Positions 17,637 to 45,130 of a stretch of 64,000 nt of DNA are shown piece after piece. Origin of the DNA: an uncultured Chroococcidiopsis sp. (lineage in GTDB: Bacteria; Cyanobacteriota; Cyanobacteriia; Cyanobacteriales; Chroococcidiopsidaceae); the NCBI GenBank assembly GCA_964248365.1, contig CAXTYC010000016.1, positions 49,063 through 113,062 on the forward strand, given 5' to 3'. Below the pieces are notes generated by a model, which did not search any database, had not been told where the DNA came from, and saw only the letters and a program-made list of their open reading frames with translations. Each line of letters starts with the position of its first letter. The stretch's first letter is position 1. Made by a program: the position numbers and the translations under genes.

Positions 17637-18527
17637 CTATCGCGGTACTAATTGAATTTGCTGCTGTGGCTGGGAGGAGCGATTCTGCAGAGCAGTTTGT
17701 ATGCGCGGTGTTTGCAGGAACTTTTTCGTAGCGGCGAGGAGGCGATCGCCCCAAAGATTTTGTCTGAGGAACTCTAAATCGCCATAACGACCATCTATCT
17801 TAATCGCCGCTTCTCCCATTTTTAGACCTTGTTCGCGTTCGCCTTTGTTATAAAGCGCCACTCCCATCGCCAGTAGAGGTTCTGCTGCTTGCTTCTCAAT
17901 TGATACTGCTGCCCGCCACTGCTTGATTGCTTCATTCACATTGCCTTGTTCGTATCTGACCAAGCCAATATTGTTAATTGCGGGCCATTTTTCCCAGTTA
18001 GGTTGAATAACTGCTTTATTGTAAGTGGCGATCGCATCAGTTAGCTTACCTATCTTGTAGTAAGTATTACCTAGATCGAATAGCCCTTGGGGGTCATTGG
18101 GTTTTAGCCGCAACCCAGCTTGTAAACTGTCAATTGCCTTGTTGTAATTTCCCTGTTGAAAGTTTGCCGAACCGATCAAAAACAAAATTGAGGGTTCTTT
18201 GGGGGCTAGAGTTTGCGCCTTTTGGAGAGCGACGAGTGATTGGTCATACTTATTTGTCTGTAAATACAAACCCCCTAAAATAGTCCATGCCTTGAAATTT
18301 TTGGGAGCCAATTGGGTTGCTAGCCGCGCTCTAGGCAAAGCCATATCAAACTGTTGGAATTGTGCTAACTGATATGCTTCCTGTGCTAGAAACAAACCTT
18401 GCTTTTCCATGCGAGCTGAATCAAGTTCTACTGTGTGAGGTATAAGTGCCTGCCCCGATGCAGGCGTAGTCATACTTCCTAAACCTAAAATTACCAGGAA
18501 AGATAGCAAGTAATTGCGATTCGGCAC
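17637..18527 (-). CDS. Exported tetratricopeptide repeat protein
   Basis: Signal peptide and repeated LG..Y...G.Y..A helical units. Confidence 0.88.
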   Translation of the reverse strand: MPNRNYLLSFLVILGLGSMTTPASGQALIPHTVELDSARMEKQGLFLAQEAYQLAQFQQFDMALPRARLATQLAPKNFKAWTILGGLYLQTNKYDQSLVALQKAQTLAPKEPSILFLIGSANFQQGNYNKAIDSLQAGLRLKPNDPQGLFDLGNTYYKIGKLTDAIATYNKAVIQPNWEKWPAINNIGLVRYEQGNVNEAIKQWRAAVSIEKQAAEPLLAMGVALYNKGEREQGLKMGEAAIKIDGRYGDLEFLRQNLWGDRLLAATKKFLQTPRIQTALQNRSSQPQQQIQLVPR

Positions 18528-18864
18528 AGTTTCCGCCTCAGTCTAATTGCAACATAATCTTCAGTTAGCTTAAACCATACTTCTACAAATCGGCAGCAAT
18601 CTTTAGCCTCTTGCTCGCCTTTGCGCCTTGGAAGCGGGGAGTTGGAAAGGGTAAAGGATAAAGGATAAAGAAGTATTGCGCTAAAGGTAATTTCTCCCAC
18701 TCTCCCCTCTTGGGTAATCTACTAGGCAATACTCATCCTTTGATGCTAATACAGTAGCGGAAATCACCCAGTCAAATGGGCAAATATTACCCATTGCGGT
18801 GTAGCCTGCCCTATCGTACCACCAGCTAGGATGGTAAGTATACGAAATAATTTTGATGCCAGCA

Positions 18865-19023
18865 GTAGGGGCGATCTTTAATAGACATACCTATAACAGA
18901 ACAAGCAATGCATGAAAAGATCGCCCCTACAGACTTCAATTTTACAGGTATATCTTTTGTAGGGGCGATCTTAAAAGATACGCCTAAGAACTACTAGACA
19001 ATCATAGAAAAACCCGCCCCTAC
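18865..19023. repeat. Two GTAG-type REP-like palindromes
   Basis: GTAGGGGCGATCTT...AAGATCGCCCCTAC followed by GTAGGGGCGATCTT...AACCCGCCCCTAC. Confidence 0.8.
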
Positions 19024-19058
19024 CTCACCCTTCGTTCCTCACCCCTTTTCCCCTCGTT

Positions 19059-20513
19059 ATGACCACCAACCACCTAAAACTTCCTCTAATTGGTAAAATC
19101 AAGCATCCGTCTCGCTGGTTACTTGGACTAGCAACAGCTGGGGTTGTGGTTATTGGCTCTACGACTTATTTTGTTGTAGAGCAGGCAAAACCCAAGTTAG
19201 ACGTTGCTCAACTGACTGTACCCGCCGAAGCAAAAAATGTCACTTTGCGAATTAACGCCAGCGGTAAAGTCGTACCGATTCAGAGCGTGAACCTTAGTCC
19301 TAAAACGGCTGGGGTATTGGTAGATTTACTTGTAGAACAGGGAGACAGGGTAGAGGCTGGGCAAGTTATTGCTCGAATGGACGATGCCGATTTGCAAGCG
19401 CAACTGCTCCAATCTAGAGCGCGTCTGGCACAGGCACAAGCGCAGTTAGATAAACTACGTACAGGTAGTCGTCCCGAAGAAATTGCCCAGGCTAGAGCGC
19501 GTCTGGCACAAGCAGAAGCTCAGCTTTCAGAAGCACGTAACGGGACTCGTCGAGAGGAAATTGAACAGGCTAAAGCTCAAGTAGAGTCGGCACAAGCACG
19601 GCTGAATCTGGCTACTAGTCGGGTGCAACGCAATCGTGAATTATACCAGCAAGGAGCAATTTCTCAAGATAAGCTCGATGAAGTTTTAGCAGATGAGCGC
19701 AGTGCCAGAGCTACCATAACAGAGATTCAAAGACGGCTAGCGCAGCTAGAAAGCGGCTCTCGTACAGAGGAAATAGCCCAAAAGCAAGCAGCAGTCGCAG
19801 AAGCTAGGGAATCTTTACGGCAGTTAGAAAATGGCAGTCGTTCAGAAGATATTGCTGATGCTAAAGGGGCTGTTAACGCTGCTCTTGGGGAATTGAAGGG
19901 TGTGCAGGTGAAGCTGGAAGACACAATTATTCGCGCTCCCTTTGCAGGAGTTGTGACGCAGAAATATGCTACAGAGGGAGCTTTTGTTACACCAACAACT
20001 TCGGCTTCTAGCACGGCATCAGCAACTTCGACTTCAATTGTAGCGATCGCTCGTGGTTTAGAAATCTTAGCTGAAGTTCCTGAAGCTGATATCGGACAAA
20101 TTAAACCAGGACAACAGGTGGAAATTATCGCTGATTCTTTTCCAGACAAGGTATTTAAAGGTCATGTTCGCTTGGTTTCTCCCGAAGCTGTACTAAACGA
20201 AAACGTCACATCTTTCCAAGTAAAAGTTGCCCTCGATACTGGTAAAGATAAACTACTTTCTGGCATGAATGTAAACTTAACCTTTTTGGGTGCAAACCTA
20301 AAAAATGCCTTGGTAGTGCCAACAGTGGCGATCGTAACCCAAAAAGGTAAGACTGGGGTGCTAGTACCTGGTGAGAATAATAAACCATTATTTCGCCCAG
20401 TCACAATTGGTTCAAGTATCCAAGACCAAACTCAAATTTTAGAGGGTTTGAAAGGAGGCGATCGCGTTTTTATTAACCTCCCTAAAGATCAGCAACCGAA
20501 GCAAGATGAGTAG
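19059..20513 (+). CDS. MacA/HlyD-type periplasmic adaptor subunit
   Basis: N-terminal TM, lipoyl half-motifs VEQGDRV and IRAPFAGVV, long coiled coil. Confidence 0.93.
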   Translation: MTTNHLKLPLIGKIKHPSRWLLGLATAGVVVIGSTTYFVVEQAKPKLDVAQLTVPAEAKNVTLRINASGKVVPIQSVNLSPKTAGVLVDLLVEQGDRVEAGQVIARMDDADLQAQLLQSRARLAQAQAQLDKLRTGSRPEEIAQARARLAQAEAQLSEARNGTRREEIEQAKAQVESAQARLNLATSRVQRNRELYQQGAISQDKLDEVLADERSARATITEIQRRLAQLESGSRTEEIAQKQAAVAEARESLRQLENGSRSEDIADAKGAVNAALGELKGVQVKLEDTIIRAPFAGVVTQKYATEGAFVTPTTSASSTASATSTSIVAIARGLEILAEVPEADIGQIKPGQQVEIIADSFPDKVFKGHVRLVSPEAVLNENVTSFQVKVALDTGKDKLLSGMNVNLTFLGANLKNALVVPTVAIVTQKGKTGVLVPGENNKPLFRPVTIGSSIQDQTQILEGLKGGDRVFINLPKDQQPKQDE

Positions 20514-20572
20514 TCATTTGTCCTTTGTCCTTTGTCATTGGTCATTTGTTCAAGAATAATAACTAATGACCA

Positions 20573-20953
20573 ATGGCAACAAAGCGTTTTCAAGAATTAC
20601 AGGTTTATCACTTAGCAGAACGGTTAGCCGATGAAATTTAGAAAACTGTTAATACCTGGGAACCATTTGCAAAGGATACCGTAGGTAAACAGATTGTTCG
20701 TGCAGCAGACAGCATAGGTGCAAATATAGCAGAAGGAGTGGGAAGAGGATCTTTTCAGGACAATAAACGTTTTGTGAAGATAGCGAGAGGCTCTTTAAAT
20801 GAAACTCAACATTGGCTAAGACGTGCTTATAATCGCAATCTTTTAACGCCTGAACAAATATATGAACTCAACCAAATCATTAACGAACTAGCACCCAAAT
20901 TAAACTCTTACCTAAAATCAATTGGTCACTTTCCACAAGAAAATGACAAATGA
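20573..20953 (+). pseudogene. Four-helix-bundle protein (23S rRNA-IVP/TIGR02436-like) with in-frame TAG at 20639-20641
   Basis: MATKRFQELQVYHLAERLADEI*KTV...QIVRAADSIGANIAEG.GR....N.RF..IARGSL.ET; the stop sits where Trp (TGG) is expected. Confidence 0.85.
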
Positions 20954-20970
20954 CAAATGACAAATAACAA

Positions 20971-22194
20971 ATGACAATGGACATTTTAGAAAGCGTCAAA
21001 ATGGCGACAAATACGCTGCTAGCTAACAAGTTACGCAGCAGTCTCACTATGTTGGGAATAATTATTGGTAACGCCTCGGTGATTGCGATGGTGGGAATTG
21101 GACAAGGAGCGCAAAAGTATGTAACTGGGCAGCTTGAGTCTCTGGGAACGAATGTATTATTTGTAGTTCCAGGCAACCGTGATGCCCAGCGGACAACGAT
21201 GAATTTACCGAAAACTTTAGTTTTAGAAGATGCACAAGCGATCGCTACCCAAGTGCCAACGGTAGCAAAAGTTGCTCCTCAATTGCACTCTAGAGAATTA
21301 GTTAGCTACCGCAACAAAAACACTTATAGTTTGATTGTTGGAACTAACCCAGATTATACAGTAGTACGCAACTTTGATACTGCTCGTGGTAGATTTCTAA
21401 ATAACCTGGATCTGAAGCGAAGTAACAATGTTGCTACCCTTGGTTCAGATTTGGCAAATAGATTGTTTGGCAACCAAAATCCTGTCGGTCAGCAAATAAG
21501 GATTAAAAATGTCAGCTTTTCAGTGATTGGGGTGATGGAGTCCAAAGGCTCAGCTTTGGGAACAAACTATGATGATAGTGTCTATATTCCAGTCACTACA
21601 ATGGCAAGCCGAATTATTGGTAAAAATTCTCCTTATGGTGTGAATTTAACATTTATCTCGGTTTCGGCAAAAAATGATGCCAGTGTAGAAGCTGCCCAAT
21701 TTCAAATTAGAAACTTGCTGCGGTTGCGGCATAAAATTATTAGAGAAGATGACTTTAGCGTCCAAAGCCAAAAGGATGTTTTACAAATTGCTGGGACTGT
21801 TACTGGTGCATTAACATTAATGTTGGCAGCGATCGCTGGGATTTCTCTGTTAGTTGGTGGTATTGGTGTGATGAACATCATGCTTGTTTCCGTTACCGAA
21901 CGCACCCAAGAAATTGGACTACGCAAAGCTCTTGGTGCTACCCAGCAAGATATCCTGATTCAATTTTTGATTGAAGCCGTCATGCTTTCTGCTGCTGGTG
22001 GTTTATTGGGTACTGGTTTGGGTGTCGGTGGAGTTTTATTAATTGGGGCTACCACTCCGTTTCAAGCAGGAGTTTCATCAGTGGCGATCGCTTTGGCTGT
22101 AGGTATCTCTGGCGGTATTGGCGTAATTTTTGGCGTTGTTCCAGCCCGTCGCGCCGCTCAACTTGACCCGATTGTTGCTCTTAGAAGTGCTTAA
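20971..22194 (+). CDS. MacB/FtsX-type ABC permease
   Basis: RSSLTMLGIIIG, GGIGVMNIMLVSVTERTQEIGLRKALGA, PARRAAQLDPI. Confidence 0.95.
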   Translation: MTMDILESVKMATNTLLANKLRSSLTMLGIIIGNASVIAMVGIGQGAQKYVTGQLESLGTNVLFVVPGNRDAQRTTMNLPKTLVLEDAQAIATQVPTVAKVAPQLHSRELVSYRNKNTYSLIVGTNPDYTVVRNFDTARGRFLNNLDLKRSNNVATLGSDLANRLFGNQNPVGQQIRIKNVSFSVIGVMESKGSALGTNYDDSVYIPVTTMASRIIGKNSPYGVNLTFISVSAKNDASVEAAQFQIRNLLRLRHKIIREDDFSVQSQKDVLQIAGTVTGALTLMLAAIAGISLLVGGIGVMNIMLVSVTERTQEIGLRKALGATQQDILIQFLIEAVMLSAAGGLLGTGLGVGGVLLIGATTPFQAGVSSVAIALAVGISGGIGVIFGVVPARRAAQLDPIVALRSA

Positions 22195-22274
22195 TTAAGC
22201 TAATTACCAGTTACCAGTTACCAGTTACCGACTACCAATTACCAATTACCAACTACCAATTACTCATCATTAAA

Positions 22275-23051
22275 ATGTTAAACAACCAACTTAAAACTCA
22301 CCCCTCACCCCTCAAGAGTCACCCCTCGCCCCTCACCCCTGTCATTGTTCGCTTAGAAAACATTTCTAAAGTGTACGGCTTTGGAGAAACAGAAGTTAAA
22401 GCTTTGTCGGATGTCAATTTAATTGTAGAACAAGGCGAGTATTGCGCCATTATGGGTGCGTCTGGTTCCGGTAAGTCTACAGCAATGAATATTATCGGCT
22501 GTCTTGACCGACCTACAGAAGGACACTATTACCTAGATAATTTGGATGTGGCAAAACTGGATGATGCAGAATTAGCACACATTCGTAACTTAAAAATTGG
22601 GTTTGTTTTCCAACAATTCCACCTCTTGCCCCAGTTGAGTGCTTTAGAAAATGTGATGCTACCGATGGTTTATGCTGGGGTAAATACTGCTCAACGCCGC
22701 GATCGCGCTATTGAAGCTTTGAAGCGAGTAGGTTTAGAAAACCGCCTCAACAATCGACCAAATCAACTTTCGGGGGGACAGCAACAACGGGTAGCGATCG
22801 CAAGGGCTATTGTCAACCGACCAGTTTTACTACTAGCCGATGAACCTACTGGCGCTCTTGACTCTCGCACTACGCAAGAAGTATTACAAATATTTGGTGA
22901 ATTAAACATGGGTGGCATTACCATTGTCATGGTGACTCACGAGCCAGATGTAGCACGGCAAACTCGGCGCATTGTCTGGTTCCGCGATGGTCAAGTTATC
23001 CACTCCCACCTAACTCCCGAAGAAATTGGTCAGGTTGCAGCCAGTCATTAA
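22275..23051 (+). CDS. MacB/LolD-type ABC ATP-binding protein
   Basis: [34 protein letters not shown]. Confidence 0.95.
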
Positions 23052-23375
23052 GGGCTAGGGGAAGGGTAATGGGTAATAGGTAACCCAGTAGAAAGTAGGG
23101 GAAATACCATTTTTCCAACTACCGTACGCGCGGGTTTATCAAACATACTTGTGAACAAGCGGAAAGTGGGGGTGAGGGGCGCGAAAAGTTGGGGGGTTTT
23201 TAGCAAGGGGTCTCCCCGCCTGCCCCCCATCCCCAGAGAAAACCCCATGCCCCCCCAAGCGAGTCAAGACAGAGAAGGGGAAACCCCCTCTCCCCCAACT
23301 TTTCAAGAGAACAAATAACTTGTTTAAAGTGCGCCCCTACCAATTACCAATTACCAACTACCACCTAGTTTCTAA

Positions 23376-23888
23376 TTACAGACTTGCTGTTTTACCTGTT
23401 TGCGCTTGAGTTTCTATAGGCTTAACATCGGTATAACCCATCTCGCCAGCAATTGTTCGGAAAATTGAAATCTGCTCCTCAAATTCAAGTCCTTCAATTT
23501 GAGAAATTAGATTGTTAATTGCTTCGCTGGCGTTGTAGTCTTGAGGCATACCAACTACTGAGTTTCCCATTCCTTGCGCCCAAGCATACCAAACCATGAG
23601 CTGATTATTTTCTTTGATTGCTCCATAGGCATGAGAATATTCTGTATTCTCTCGGTTAACAATTTGTCGCATAATTGCCAGTTGCTCTTGATCTGACAAT
23701 TCATAAAACTTTCCCATCAGCAGGGGTGCTAATTCAGGCTCGGTTGCAGCAGGAGCAGCTGGAGTAATTGAGTCTCCCATTTTTTTATAAACTAAATAAA
23801 ACCAAGCAAGTTTGGCATCAGTATCTAAAGCATTGAAACCTTGCACTACTTTCTGAGTTTCATCGGAAAGTGCTTGAGGACTATTCAT
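23376..23888 (-). CDS. Helical carotenoid protein (stand-alone OCP N-terminal domain)
   Basis: KLAWFY..Y..MG.SITPAAP, EQL.IMR, YGA...N.QL..WY.WA..MG motifs. Confidence 0.9.
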   Translation of the reverse strand: MNSPQALSDETQKVVQGFNALDTDAKLAWFYLVYKKMGDSITPAAPAATEPELAPLLMGKFYELSDQEQLAIMRQIVNRENTEYSHAYGAIKENNQLMVWYAWAQGMGNSVVGMPQDYNASEAINNLISQIEGLEFEEQISIFRTIAGEMGYTDVKPIETQAQTGKTASL

Positions 23889-24113
23889 AATTCATCTCCA
23901 GAGTAAATTCATACTATCAAGCTTAGGGTTATCAGAATTGATAGATGCAAGTCGCCCTCCAATAGAGATAGTTTCCTCAACAAAATTTACTCCCCAAGAT
24001 GTAGGAAGGTAGCGATTGTAGAGAGTTGAAAATCTATCTCAATGTGGTTATGAAGGCAGGCGTAGCTCTATAAGATTACAGCAATAATAAATAAATCTAA
24101 ATAGGAGTTACTA

Positions 24114-24416
24114 ATGCCTGAAGAGATTAAGCCCAATGCCAATCAAGCTCCTACTCAAGATGCCCAACTAGCTGCTGAAAACATGAATAGTGGTCAAGAA
24201 GCAGTGCCAGCGGTAGATTTTGACGCAGACTATGAAGCAGCTCAACAATTTAGTATTAGTGATGTAGATCGCACAGGTGAAGGCGCAAAAGCAGCACAAA
24301 AAGCTACTGCTCCTGAACATCAATTGTCACAGCCAGAGGAGACAAGAACAGAAGCACAGCCTACAGGCGATCCTGCTGACTATATGGATATGGCAAAAGA
24401 CGTTACTCATCAGTAG
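24114..24416 (+). CDS. Small acidic hydrophilic hypothetical protein
   Basis: AGGAG RBS; A/E/Q/D-rich, likely disordered. Confidence 0.75.
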   Translation: MPEEIKPNANQAPTQDAQLAAENMNSGQEAVPAVDFDADYEAAQQFSISDVDRTGEGAKAAQKATAPEHQLSQPEETRTEAQPTGDPADYMDMAKDVTHQ

Positions 24417-24487
24417 TAGTGTGGGTCATCCCCACATTACATATAATTCTTGTTCCCCTGCGATCGCATGAGAACACGACCTACCTG

Positions 24488-24566
24488 AAAAAAAAGAGAC
24501 AGCCTTCAATGGGAGGATATCTGCGCATTTTCGAGGGATCTTTTAAAAAGGCTGTCTCTTTTTTTT
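24488..24566. terminator. Bidirectional long-stem hairpin between convergent genes
   Basis: A8-GAGACAGCCTT / AAGGCTGTCTC-T8, perfect 19-bp stem with 41-nt loop. Confidence 0.7.
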
Positions 24567-24679
24567 ATGTCGGATGGCTACTGGAAACGAGAAACTGCAT
24601 AAATAAATAATAGGGTGGGCATTGCCCACCCTACTGATTTTTTACCACTTGACTATTTACACCTAATGTGTATCAAGGC

Positions 24680-25627
24680 TTATGTTAATGCCTGAGCCCC
24701 GCCAACAACCTCAAGAATTTCTTGGGTAATTGCGGCTTGCCGTGCCTTGTTATAGGAAAGGGTGAGCGTACCAATTAATTCGCTAGCGTTGTCACTGGCA
24801 TTATTCATTGCCGTCATCCGCGCCGCTAATTCACTGGCTGCTGATTCTTGTAACGCCCTCAATAACTGGTTATTCAGGTATAGGGGCAAAAGAGCATCGA
24901 GAATCTGCACCGGATCTTGCTCGAAAAGCATATCTCGAGGAAAACTCCGCGTTGGGGTAGACACTTTTTGTCTTTCTACCTCAAATTCACCGCCTTTGGT
25001 AGTGAGGCGGAAGACTTCGTCATCGGCTGTTTCTAGACCTTGAGCATCAAGTGGTAGTAGGGTTTGTACTACTGGTCGGGAACTAACCAGAGAGACGAAT
25101 TTTGTATATACTAGCTCAATCCGGTCTACGCTTTCCGACAGAAATAAGGAAAGAAGCTCATCAGCAATTCTGCTTGCTTCTGCTGCGGTAGGAATTTGCT
25201 CTAAACCTGTGTAGGTAGCGTCGATGGGCTGGTTGCGACGTTGGAAGTACTGGTTAGCTTTGCGCCCAACTAGGATGTATTTGTAATCCAAGCCTTCGGC
25301 TTTTAGTTCGTTAGCACGGGCTTCAGCACGACGAATGACATTGGTATTATAAGCGCCACACAAACCGCGATCGCCTGAAACTACCAATAAGCCGACTGAA
25401 CGAACTTGCCGTTTTCGCAGTAATGGCAGGTCTGCGTCTTCAAACCGCAAACGACCTTGTAAATTGTATAGCACTTGCGCCAAGCGATCGGCAAAGGGGC
25501 GGGTAGCGATCACCTGTTGTTGGGCGCGACGCACCCTAGCAGCAGCCACTAGGCGCATTGCTTCTGTGATTTTTTGGGTATTTTTGACCGACCCAATGCG
25601 ATCGCGTATTGCTTTGAGATTAGCCAT
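24680..25627 (-). CDS. atpG: ATP synthase F1 gamma subunit (cyanobacterial atpC)
   Basis: [47 protein letters not shown]. Confidence 0.99.
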
Positions 25628-25714
25628 AGTTTTGTCCTTAGTCTTTTGTCCTTAGTCTTTTGTCCTTAGTCTTTTCTTTTGACAAATGACCAAGGACAAA
25701 TGACAAGTGACGAT

Positions 25715-27232
25715 TTATGCTGTTGCCATGAAGGTTTGCTTGTACTCAGTGATCGCTTCTTTCAACAGCTTTTCGGCTTCGTCATTCAGTTGCTTTTCGT
25801 TGCGGACAATATCGACATATTGCTGCTTGCTGGTTTGCAAGTATTCCCGCAGCCCTCTAGCGAAGGTGGTGACTTTTTCTGTTGGAATTTCATCTAGATA
25901 GCCGTTAAGACCAGCGTACAGAACTGCTACTTGCTCATATACAGCTAGAGGCGAGTACTGGGGCTGCTTGAGCAGTTCGCGTAACCGTTCACCCCGCGCT
26001 AGCTGATCTTGTGTCGCTTTATCCAAGTCGGAAGCAAACTGAGCAAATGCTTGCAGGTCGTCAAACTGGGCTAATTCCAGCTTCAATTTCCCAGCTACTT
26101 TTTTCATCGCCTTGGTTTGCGCTGCCGAACCTACCCGCGACACCGAGATACCTGGGTTTACCGCCGGACGCAGACCAGAGTTAAACAAGTCGGAAGACAA
26201 GAAGATCTGACCATCCGTGATCGAAATCACGTTGGTAGGAATGTAAGCAGATACGTCACCTGCTTGGGTTTCAATAATTGGCAGGGCGGTCATACTGCCT
26301 TCACCCAGTTCATTACTCAATTTAGCGGCACGTTCTAGTAAGCGAGAGTGGAGGTAGAACACGTCGCCTGGGTAAGCTTCCCGACCAGGCGGACGACGCA
26401 GCAGCAGGGACATTTGGCGATAAGCTGCGGCTTGCTTAGATAAGTCGTCATAAATTACCAAGGTAGCTTTGCCCTTGTACATGAAGTACTCAGCCATTGT
26501 TGCCCCAGTGTATGGCGACAAGTACTGGAGGGTAGCAGGTTCGTTGGCATTAGCAGCAACGACTATTGTGTAGTCCATCGCTCCCTTTTCCCCGAGGACG
26601 TTGACTACGTTAGCGACCGTAGAAGCCTTTTGACCAATGGCGACGTAGACGCAGATTACATCTCCGCCCTTTTGGTTGATGATAGTGTCTATAGCGATCG
26701 AAGTTTTACCAGTTTGGCGATCGCCGATAATTAGTTCTCGCTGACCTCTACCAACTGGAATCATCGCGTCAATAGCTGTAATTCCTGTTTGCATCGGTTC
26801 GTAAACAGAACGACGCGACACAATTCCTGGTGCTGGAGATTCAATCAAACGAGTTTCCCCTGTGTTGATGTCTCCCTTACCATCAATGGCGCGACCCAGG
26901 GCATCCACCACCCGCCCAATCATGGCATCTCCCACTGGAACCTGGGCAATTTTCCCAGTAGCGGTGACAGAACTACCTTCTTGAATGTGAAGCCCTTCGC
27001 CCATTAGCACTGCGCCTACGTTGTCTTCTTCCAAGTTCAAGGCGATGCCAACTGTGCCGTCTTCAAACTCCAATAGTTCTCCCGCCATGACTTTTTCTAA
27101 GCCATAAATCCGGGCAATACCATCACCTACTTGCAATACTGTGCCGACGTTAGCAACTTTAACTTCTTGGCTGTATTGCTCAATTTGCTGCTGAATAATG
27201 CTGCTGATTTCGTCTGGTCTAATGCTGATCAT
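25715..27232 (-). CDS. atpA: ATP synthase F1 alpha subunit
   Basis: [31 protein letters not shown]. Confidence 0.99.
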
Positions 27233-27415
27233 GGTAACTGTTTGTTTTTAAGGAATTAAGGATGGGGGAAAGGATGAAGGATGAAGGGTAAAGGGTAAAG
27301 GGTAAAGGGTAAAGGTAATTCGTAATTCGTAATTCGTAATTAATTATTCTCCCCTGCTCCCCTGCTCCCCTCTCCCCCCTATCCCCAGAGGGGACCCCGA
27401 GTCCCCCCTGCCTCT

Positions 27416-27967
27416 TTATGTGCCACTGGTTAAGCGCAGGGAAAGGCGACGCAGTTGCCCTTTGATGCTAGCATCAACGACCTGAGAGCCTACTTTAATG
27501 ATCACACCACCAATTAAGTCTCGATCGATCTTTGTTTCTAGTTCAACAGAGCGGGCATTAGTCATGGCTACAACGCGATCGCGTACAGCCTGCTGCTGTT
27601 CTTCTGTGAGTTCTATGGCTGAGGTGACTTCAGCCAAAACAGTTTGATTCAACGAGCGCAACTGATTTAGGAACTGCTGACAAATTCCTTCTAGCAACAA
27701 TATACGTCGCCGATCTACTAACAGCATCAAGAAATTGCGAATAGAGGGATTAACGTCTTCACCCAGCACTCGCCCTAACACAGCCTTTTTATCTTCTGGC
27801 TTGATGAAGGGATTAGCGAGAAAATCTCGAAATTGCTCTGATGATTGTAGTAGATTGAGTATGGAACGCATCTGTTCACCAAACTGTTCTGTTTGATTTT
27901 GTTTGCTGGCTACAGACATTAGTGCTTGTGCGTATGGATCTACTACTTTTTCATTTACTGCTTTCAT
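27416..27967 (-). CDS. atpH: ATP synthase F1 delta subunit (cyanobacterial atpD)
   Basis: [27 protein letters not shown]; operon position. Confidence 0.97.
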
Positions 27968-28527
27968 CGACTTCCTCCCAGTAGCGCAATACTGCGGTCA
28001 ATTAATTTTTGTTGAGTAGCGTCATCTACCCCCTGTTGCAATTGGGATTCGACTTTTTCTAATGCCATAGCGACTACCCTGGCTCGCAGCGAAGCGATCG
28101 CTCTTTCTCTTTCTGAGTTCAAATCTTGGCTAGCTGTTTCTTGCAACCGTTGAATGTCTGTTGCTACCTGTGACAAAATGTTTTCTCTTGCTTTTTGAGC
28201 GCTATCATCGGCGTTCTTACGGATTCTTTCAGCTTCTGCTTGGGCTGAAGCCAAGTTTTGCTGCTGCTTTTGTAGTGCTGCTGCTGCTTCGGCTGCGCGT
28301 TTTTCTGCCGCTACAATTTCTGTCTCAATTCTTTCACGGCGATCGCTCAAGGTTTTACCCACTACTTTGCGCCCGAAAAATACCAGCACACCAACCAGAA
28401 TGGCAAGATTAATCAGGTTTGTTTCTAAAATATCGAAATTAAAACCAAACCCGCCCTCTTCTGTTGTCTCTGCCACTTCTGCCACGAAACTGCTAGCTTT
28501 TGTCACCAACCATAAAAAACTTCCCAT
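27964..28527 (-). CDS. atpF: ATP synthase F0 subunit b
   Basis: [19 protein letters not shown] plus coiled coil. Confidence 0.97.
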
Positions 28528-44858: not shown

Positions 44859-45130
44859 TTAAGTAGTTACACTTAAAATTAGATAAATATAAAATAAATA
44901 TAAAATTAAGGCACAATTACATTGCGACAAAAGTTAAGTAAAAATAAAGAAGTTGTGATTTTTATTAGAGGAAGTTACTGAAAACAGCCTGCCATCTTAA
45001 GTAGTTACACTTAAAGATAAATATAAAATAAATATAAAATTAAGGCAGCAGTTACATTGCGACAAAAGTTAAGTAAAAATAAAGAAGTTGTGATTTTTAT
45101 TAGAGGAAATTACTGAAAACAGCCTGCCAT
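44859..45130. repeat. Tandem duplication of an AT-rich segment of about 135 bp
   Basis: TTAAGTAGTTACACTTAA...GAAAACAGCCTGCCAT at 44859-44995 and 44997-45130. Confidence 0.9.

Follow-up and report, generated by a model that had tools for sequence, protein, structure and literature searches.

We examined a 64,000-nucleotide stretch of an uncultured Chroococcidiopsis sp. (contig CAXTYC010000016.1, positions 49,063 to 113,062; hereafter the window) in which a small gene of the PF05635/TIGR02436 family, enclosed by inverted arrays of heptamers, lies within a transporter operon. The operon encodes, in this order, an efflux adaptor, a MacB-like permease and an ABC ATPase (profile matches), and a 470-base arm-gene-arm unit sits between the first two (Table 1). 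The TAG stop codon of the adaptor occupies 20511-20513 and the left arm begins on its last base, running GTCATTT, GTCCTTT, GTCCTTT, GTCATTG and GTCATTT (20513-20547). The right arm reads AAATGAC three times and then AAATAAC, AAATGAC and AATGGAC; it contains the TGA of the PF05635 gene (20951-20953) and two in-frame permease ATGs (20971 and 20977). An initial annotation, made from the letters of the window, had described the arms and their overlap with the adaptor stop and the permease start, and both are seen in the sequence and with Tandem Repeats Finder (TRF). It had also begun the permease at 20971, but orthologous permeases begin MD.. and point to 20977, the ATG at 20971 deriving from the arm.

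The same annotation reported a reverse-orientation set of units over the gene's own ATG (20573), and this set is present at 20557-20577. It is an imperfect 21-nt direct repeat of the right-arm end (20962-20982) and is made of arm units, such that the PF05635 gene is flanked by two imperfect direct repeats of "right-arm end + ATG". In the pairing model, the left arm and the internal set close a short stand-alone hairpin (-20.8 kcal/mol). The left arm also holds a weak sigma-70-like match directly 5' of the gene, in a region with 14 such sites where 6.9 are expected. Further along the window, a hairpin without a gene lies between two genes that we take to be atpA and atpG from their sequence likeness to these genes; this hairpin is the arms-only counterpart of the cassette.

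Table 1. Features of the arm-gene-arm unit, its host genes and the arms-only hairpin (positions in the window)
Feature	Position	Strand	Basis
Efflux periplasmic adaptor subunit, host gene	19059..20513	+	TIGR01730, 183 bits (cut-off 94.9)
Left arm, five GTC(A/C)TT(T/G) heptamers plus GT	20513..20549	+	Sequence, TRF
Sigma-70-like match, TTGTCA-17-AATAAT, 10/12	20532..20560	+	Weak, consensus match only
Internal right-type set, three units, the last ending in the gene's ATG	20557..20577	+	Sequence, pairing model
PF05635/TIGR02436 four-helix-bundle gene, 126 codons, TAG at codon 23	20573..20953	+	Profiles, sequence
Right arm, six AAATGAC-type heptamers complementary to the left arm	20941..20982	+	Sequence, TRF, folding
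MacB-like ABC permease, host gene	20977..22194	+	Best match MacB, below equivalog cut-off
Gene-less hairpin, same heptamer type, between atpA and atpG	25630..25711	.	TRF, comparison with relatives

Heptamer arrays are a general feature of this genome, which holds 2,347 of them and has an array on both sides of 450 of its 4,577 open reading frames (ORFs). A control was therefore essential, and these numbers would be the argument for an ordinary small gene that adjoins arrays only because the genome is full of them. Because units of 8 bases and noisy arms escaped a detector set strictly to period 7 (4/7 own copies, 19/31 relatives), we used an unbiased, ungapped inverted-repeat score on 230-nt flanks, with a threshold of at least 15 and mechanically called ORFs. 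The window gene scores 25. The comparison proposed beforehand in the annotation, all PF05635/TIGR02436 genes against control ORFs, revealed enrichment of complementary arms: six of the seven PF05635 genes of the genome reach the threshold, as against 101 of the 4,577 ORFs. The family is present in 47 of 60 related genomes (48 of 61 counting the genome of the window). We took in 172 loci in all and dropped five for short flanks or duplication. The threshold is reached in 71 of 89 loci from relatives (two own copies included; top matches were fetched first, so frameshifted copies are under-sampled), in 66 of 78 members of the window protein's clade from named genomes, and in 59 of 67 loci on independent metagenome contigs (of 80, 13 had flanks too short to use). 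When flanks were exchanged between loci of relatives, 17 of 600 combinations reach it. The arms are real and non-random. Together with the way in which arm type accompanies the protein into other phyla (see below), the flank control refutes the ordinary-gene explanation, to which we give next to no credence.

The clade of the window protein spans Cyanobacteria, Planctomycetota, Acidobacteriota, Verrucomicrobiota and others. With same-site duplicates removed, arms of the window subclade cross-pair with those of non-cyanobacterial clade members in 197 of 396 pairs and with those of other clades in 49 of 2,013; with more distant cyanobacterial members of the clade, 77 of 429 pairs do so. The window's own arms match 19 of 33 non-cyanobacterial clade members and 1 of 61 loci from other clades. 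Judged by these pairings, arm type follows the protein clade across phyla. The sites are diverse, the 158 armed loci falling into 106 neighbour keys (neighbours called mechanically), and their placement resembles that in the window. When both neighbours were called, these were co-oriented at 122 of 149 loci, with the gene in sense at 86 and in antisense at 36. The left arm sets in at -15 to +10 relative to the upstream stop in 87 of 109 loci; in 64 of 96, no more than 15 nt separate the end of the right arm from a start.

With its stop read as X, the window gene scores 103 bits on PF05635 (cut-off 33.8) and 97 on TIGR02436 (cut-off 24). Its codon 23 (20639-20641) is TAG, and the gene has no frameshift. 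This position is Trp in 91 of 93 clade members and an invariant Trp in the 37 clade sequences that we aligned across phyla, which share 27 invariant columns. Thus, the claim of a four-helix-bundle ORF stands for the family and fails for the reading frame: as assembled, the window copy cannot yield a full-length protein. Values of dN/dS against seven relatives (about 0.04-0.17) indicate that the protein was under purifying selection until this single nonsense change. Because these values are low and no frameshift is present, the loss looks recent, or the TAG is an assembly error. The gene has 37.5% G+C, compared with 43.4% for the genome.

An intact homolog, 75% identical, was modelled with a predicted local distance difference test (pLDDT) score of 95, and the model superimposes on Xcc0516 (2GSC) with a template-modelling (TM) score of 0.91 and on Avd with 0.77 (E 0.018); the fold obtained from the single sequence was weak (pLDDT 69). 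The model thus has the four-helix fold known from Xcc0516 and BT_0352. Structure comparison of the modelled homolog found no nuclease or transposase fold. Profiles and model agree with the relation to rRNA intervening-sequence proteins (IVPs) and with the Avd-like fold that had been claimed for the gene. Xcc0516 is a homopentamer according to the accessible part of PMC4990558, and the window protein is predicted to form an Avd-like nucleic-acid-binding ring. For PF05635 itself, structures have been solved and no function has been assigned. The likeness to the Avd of diversity-generating retroelements (DGRs; PDB 4DWL and the available sections of PMC10053308) is one of fold, whereas identity is 15% and the window copy has no match to the bAvd profile (PF22296). 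Within the genome, only two other PF05635 copies match this profile, both below cut-off, and none of the 14 RVT_1 matches is on contig C16, which carries the window. We therefore rejected a DGR Avd, given the lack of a PF22296 match for the window copy and of a reverse transcriptase on its contig.

The genome holds seven PF05635 copies that are 46-58% identical in nucleotides; each has a different unit and four are broken. This divergence led us to reject a multiplying transposon. A related explanation is a miniature inverted-repeat transposable element or defective insertion sequence, for which the arms would serve as terminal inverted repeats and some unrecognised transposase would act in trans. 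Inverted ends, a small uniform size and many sites would fit such an element, but we consider it very improbable: near-identical copies are missing from the genome, no ends are fixed, since each copy has its own unit and the unit also varies at a single orthologous site, and matches occur in only 2 of 72,556 plasmids and 0 of 50,697 phages, which also means that we found next to no sign of plasmid or phage carriage.

How did the gene come to lie at this junction? The best homologs of the window gene are outside the host's family, at 75% amino acid identity; 28 of 151 genomes match, and 6 of 27 within the family. Its dS is 0.79 to a Nostoc copy versus 1.95 to a same-genus copy, while host genes have a dS of 0.59-0.71 to the nearest genome and 1.4-2.0 to others. 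The placement of homologs and the dS values favour horizontal arrival of the cassette. A junction survey returned 30 loci for the 61 genomes, 28 of which hold both neighbours, and the PF05635 gene is absent from all 27 of the other loci (27/27). This agrees with the earlier description of a discrete, transposase-less and optional insert, and the gene is not vertically conserved here without arms. Precise presence and absence, which a comparison of the operon in relatives was expected to reveal, was not seen: the gene is missing from the 27 loci, but none is a precise empty site, the closest ones carrying other repeat arrays. The 12 closest junctions have gaps of 53-160 nt and 10 of these 12 carry heptamer arrays, mostly of other units; in G006, the same GTCATTT unit as in the left arm follows right after the stop. 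The adaptor-permease junction is thus a recurrent site for repeats. Similarly, the atpA-atpG junction has a gene-less hairpin with a different unit in each of the four genomes seen. No other IVP locus among those examined lies at the adaptor-permease junction. Separately, three cassettes (L093, L078 and L153) lie beside distantly related efflux adaptor or permease genes, as independent insertions in similar operons.

Two other copies in the genome allow a cassette to be followed at its site. L201 (G000:C13:81103-81730; G000 is the genome of the window) is an intact IVP gene, antisense between hemE and an epimerase gene, and its arms are the commonest hairpin unit of this genome. Among 27 paired loci at the hemE-epimerase junction, 9 have a cassette, 10 are tight and empty, 7 have 44-126 nt and one has 1,019 nt. 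The unit differs among the filled loci, with both arms changing together. In a FastTree phylogeny of hemE, two empty genomes nest among filled ones, and by eye the G002 junction resembles the empty type. These two observations suggest that the cassette has been lost by recombination. At L203 (G005), hemE of the closest genome groups apart from that of G000 while the epimerase groups with it, suggesting gene replacement.

The second copy, L261 (G000:C1:20120-20590), is an intact IVP cassette within an uninterrupted Eco57I-type methylase ORF, with the IVP gene out of frame. The insert keeps the methylase frame and adds 153 residues, while 25 of 26 other methylase loci have a short loop at this position. 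L261 is the sole one of 138 intact cores with a stop-free alternative frame on the same strand. Because the methylase frame is kept open, this single case points to translation through the insert and not to its splicing or other removal. The same methylase ORF has further in-frame inserts derived from heptamers.

L261 bears on an explanation at the level of mRNA, an intervening sequence retained for regulation, in which the two arms would base-pair once transcribed and the resulting stem would be cleaved by RNase III, thereby fixing how much upstream product is made relative to downstream product. Its precedent is the 23S rRNA intervening sequence of Coxiella burnetii, which combines an S23p ORF with heptamer repeats at the 5' end and a stem of 28 bp that RNase III cleaves (PMC4990558, from the portion available). 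In the window, the left and right arms are predicted to form a duplex of -39.0 kcal/mol with a mean pairing of 0.75 and several mismatches in the stem, which would cover ATG 20971 and the first base of ATG 20977 and so place the permease start partly in the stem. The position of 122 of 149 loci between co-oriented genes also fits. However, the region as a whole folds only modestly more stably than shuffled sequences do (z = -1.94; 3 of 100 did as well), and an excess of G.U over A.C as a sign of selection for RNA pairing is missing both in 141 loci (192 versus 260) and in gene-less hairpins (113 versus 119). In addition, 36 of the 122 co-oriented loci are antisense to the host operon, the methylase copy appears to be translated through, and the adaptor-permease junction works without an insert in relatives. 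At gathering level, Rfam gave no match in 18000-28000, only sub-threshold miRNA-like ones. We regard an intervening sequence acting in mRNA as unlikely.

The unit and polarity of the arms recur without the gene. Intergenic heptamer repeats of cyanobacteria include those named STRR and SDR. The genome contains in addition 5,556 HIP1 sites, which, like the named homologs, point to a cyanobacterial host. It has 130 close pairs that form gene-less hairpins, 107 versus 9 in cassette polarity, and these mostly abut stops, as cassettes do. Convergent polarity and placement after stops have been published for gene-less heptamer pairs (PMC4692102, as far as its text was available). The repeats are also associated with the gene. 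Where a genome has an IVP armed with a given unit, the median number of triple-unit matches is 169 (10 of 13 genome-unit pairs at 40 or more), versus a median of 0 and 30 of 231 at 40 or more for the other pairs. The number of IVP genes correlates with the totals of four units across 61 related genomes (rho 0.45; kin are not independent), and the unit at the hemE site tracks the common repeat of each genome (219 versus 1 in G000, 10 versus 239 in G003).

These associations raise the possibility, which we hold to be doubtful, that each IVP clade is a dedicated factor, present in one copy, for one heptamer unit: it would recognise that unit and scatter gene-less hairpins of it through the genome, perhaps aided by a reverse transcriptase or nuclease of the host, much as REP-associated tyrosine transposases (RAYTs) are tied to REP and REPIN sequences. 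The PF05635 clades would then be the factors behind heptamer hairpins, Avd-like rings that bind their own unit and, with host enzymes, seed arm pairs where translation stops and starts; we put this forward tentatively. It is conceivable, at a similarly low level of confidence, that such a transposase-free counterpart of RAYT and REPIN also gave rise to the ORF-bearing rRNA intervening sequences. Clade-specific units, one copy per clade at 46-58% identity within a genome, gene-less hairpins that share the polarity and placement of cassettes, and the associations above all speak for such a factor. Against it, three genomes are rich in repeats without a PF05635 match (G054 with 358 arrays, G024 with 110 and G027 with 336, the last 65% complete), and GTCATT arrays abound in G001-G006 and G048, where no GTCATT-armed copy is among the loci fetched. 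Three genomes with GGAGYGA arms have only 5-18 matches of that unit, a unit whose reversed control is almost the same pattern and hence uninformative. There are no IVP remnants inside gene-less hairpins (nhmmer returned the seven known copies only, besides weaker matches without arms), and no nuclease or transposase fold is at hand. A one-to-one dependence of the repeats on the gene is unsupported, and the gene seems unnecessary for the repeats, since repeat-rich genomes without a detected copy exist. The initial annotation had suggested a link between the cassette and the spread of arrays; what we see is an association, alongside repeat-rich genomes that lack a detected gene.

The parallel with RAYTs and REP/REPIN sequences, as laid out in the available part of PMC5581495, lies in a gene present once, whose flanking repeats belong to a family that also occurs scattered as gene-less hairpins, in family-specific repeats and in long persistence at a site. 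Unlike a RAYT, the cassette has no HUH tyrosine transposase (profiles and structure comparison), its repeats are tandem heptamer arrays that persist without a detected gene, and many of its copies are broken.

On balance, we think it likely that the 470-base insert came horizontally and integrated through its arms into a repeat hairpin already resident at the stop/start junction. The cassette would be the gene-bearing form of the heptamer hairpin family, and a new site would be reached rarely, via homology between the cassette arms and resident arrays of a matching unit. Entry by arm homology would account both for the constancy of the unit within each clade and for the position of the window gene between two direct repeats of "right arm + ATG". 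At this locus, a gene-less hairpin would have been there first, the gene being added later by recombination through matching arms. After integration, the cassette would be inherited, and recombination within the neighbouring genes would account for its gain or loss; the same has been proposed for rRNA intervening sequences. It may be tolerated since the arms supply stop and start codons, leaving both neighbours whole. The protein would aid the transfer of the cassette itself rather than the host, hence its decay after arrival. As assembled, the window copy is an inactive passenger and a trace of how the cassette arrives.

Several points weigh against integration through the arms and a passenger cassette. 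The internal right-type set that creates the direct repeat is present in only 5 of 135 loci; because the pattern is this rare, arm-homology integration is suggested as a reading of this locus and not of the family. At the hemE site, both arms change their unit in place, and plain recombination fails to account for this. We saw no integration event: the closest genome is already at a dS of about 0.6, and a search for contigs of the same species gave 0 exact matches and a best protein match of 75%. Calculated from about 120 codons, the dS values are noisy, and the dS to G058 (1.31) is no lower than that of atpA (1.41). The protein tree was built by a quick method and leaves many forks open. The TAG may be an assembly error instead of a real mutation, in which case the copy would not be dead, and the strong conservation of the protein across phyla could just as well reflect a benefit to the host or a catalytic function.

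Among known systems, the Coxiella intervening sequence is close to the preferred reading, integration of a gene-bearing hairpin. Within the part of PMC4990558 that was available, the two share the protein family, a similar size (428-444 nt in Coxiella), complementary ends, tandem heptamers at the Coxiella 5' end, a sporadic, horizontally acquired distribution and a decaying ORF. They differ in that the window insert lies between two protein genes at an mRNA stop/start junction, not in 23S rRNA, and in that both of its arms are periodic arrays. That part of the paper does not describe copies outside rRNA. Intergenic heptamers have been reported as GGGAATC/GGGGA(C/T)T in Xanthomonas and Nostoc (PMC4692102) and as TAACTGA in Beggiatoaceae (PMC4679880); as in our arms, these form convergent inverted pairs near stop codons or just 5' of starts, but the accessible text of the two papers describes no gene-bearing form. 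In cas loci, 23S_rRNA_IVP genes sit in narrow gaps between genes of an operon, one example being cyanobacterial cmr3-cmr2 (PMC3936711). Unlike us, the available portion of that work reads the family as a cas-associated function, and it mentions no flanking repeats. We found no account of an arm-gene-arm design outside rRNA or at mRNA junctions in the main texts searched, which included few subscription papers. Thus, a family-wide cassette outside rRNA is apparently undescribed. On this view, the intervening sequence of rRNA would be a general cassette at one of its landing sites, and the origin of intergenic heptamer arrays would be tied to PF05635 clades that each keep their unit across phyla.

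Other repeats were observed in the window and elsewhere in the genome. The permease-ATPase gap (22202-22340) is filled by a nine-unit AATTACC array, and a CTCACCC array encodes part of the N-terminus of the ATPase ORF as called. At 23064-23363 of the window, an inward GGGTAAT/TACCAAT pair surrounds nested hairpins without an ORF, and 44859-45130 is a tandem duplication (135 nt x2). Outside the window, an inward heptamer pair at G000:C3:270393-270786 encloses a sequence that by eye resembles a tRNA, and G000:C15:107404-107938 has a tandem duplication of about 280 nt that includes a hairpin arm. Finally, an ORF with inverted flanks lies at G000:C1:339340-339915, and we presume from its N-terminus that it resembles a REP-associated tyrosine transposase.

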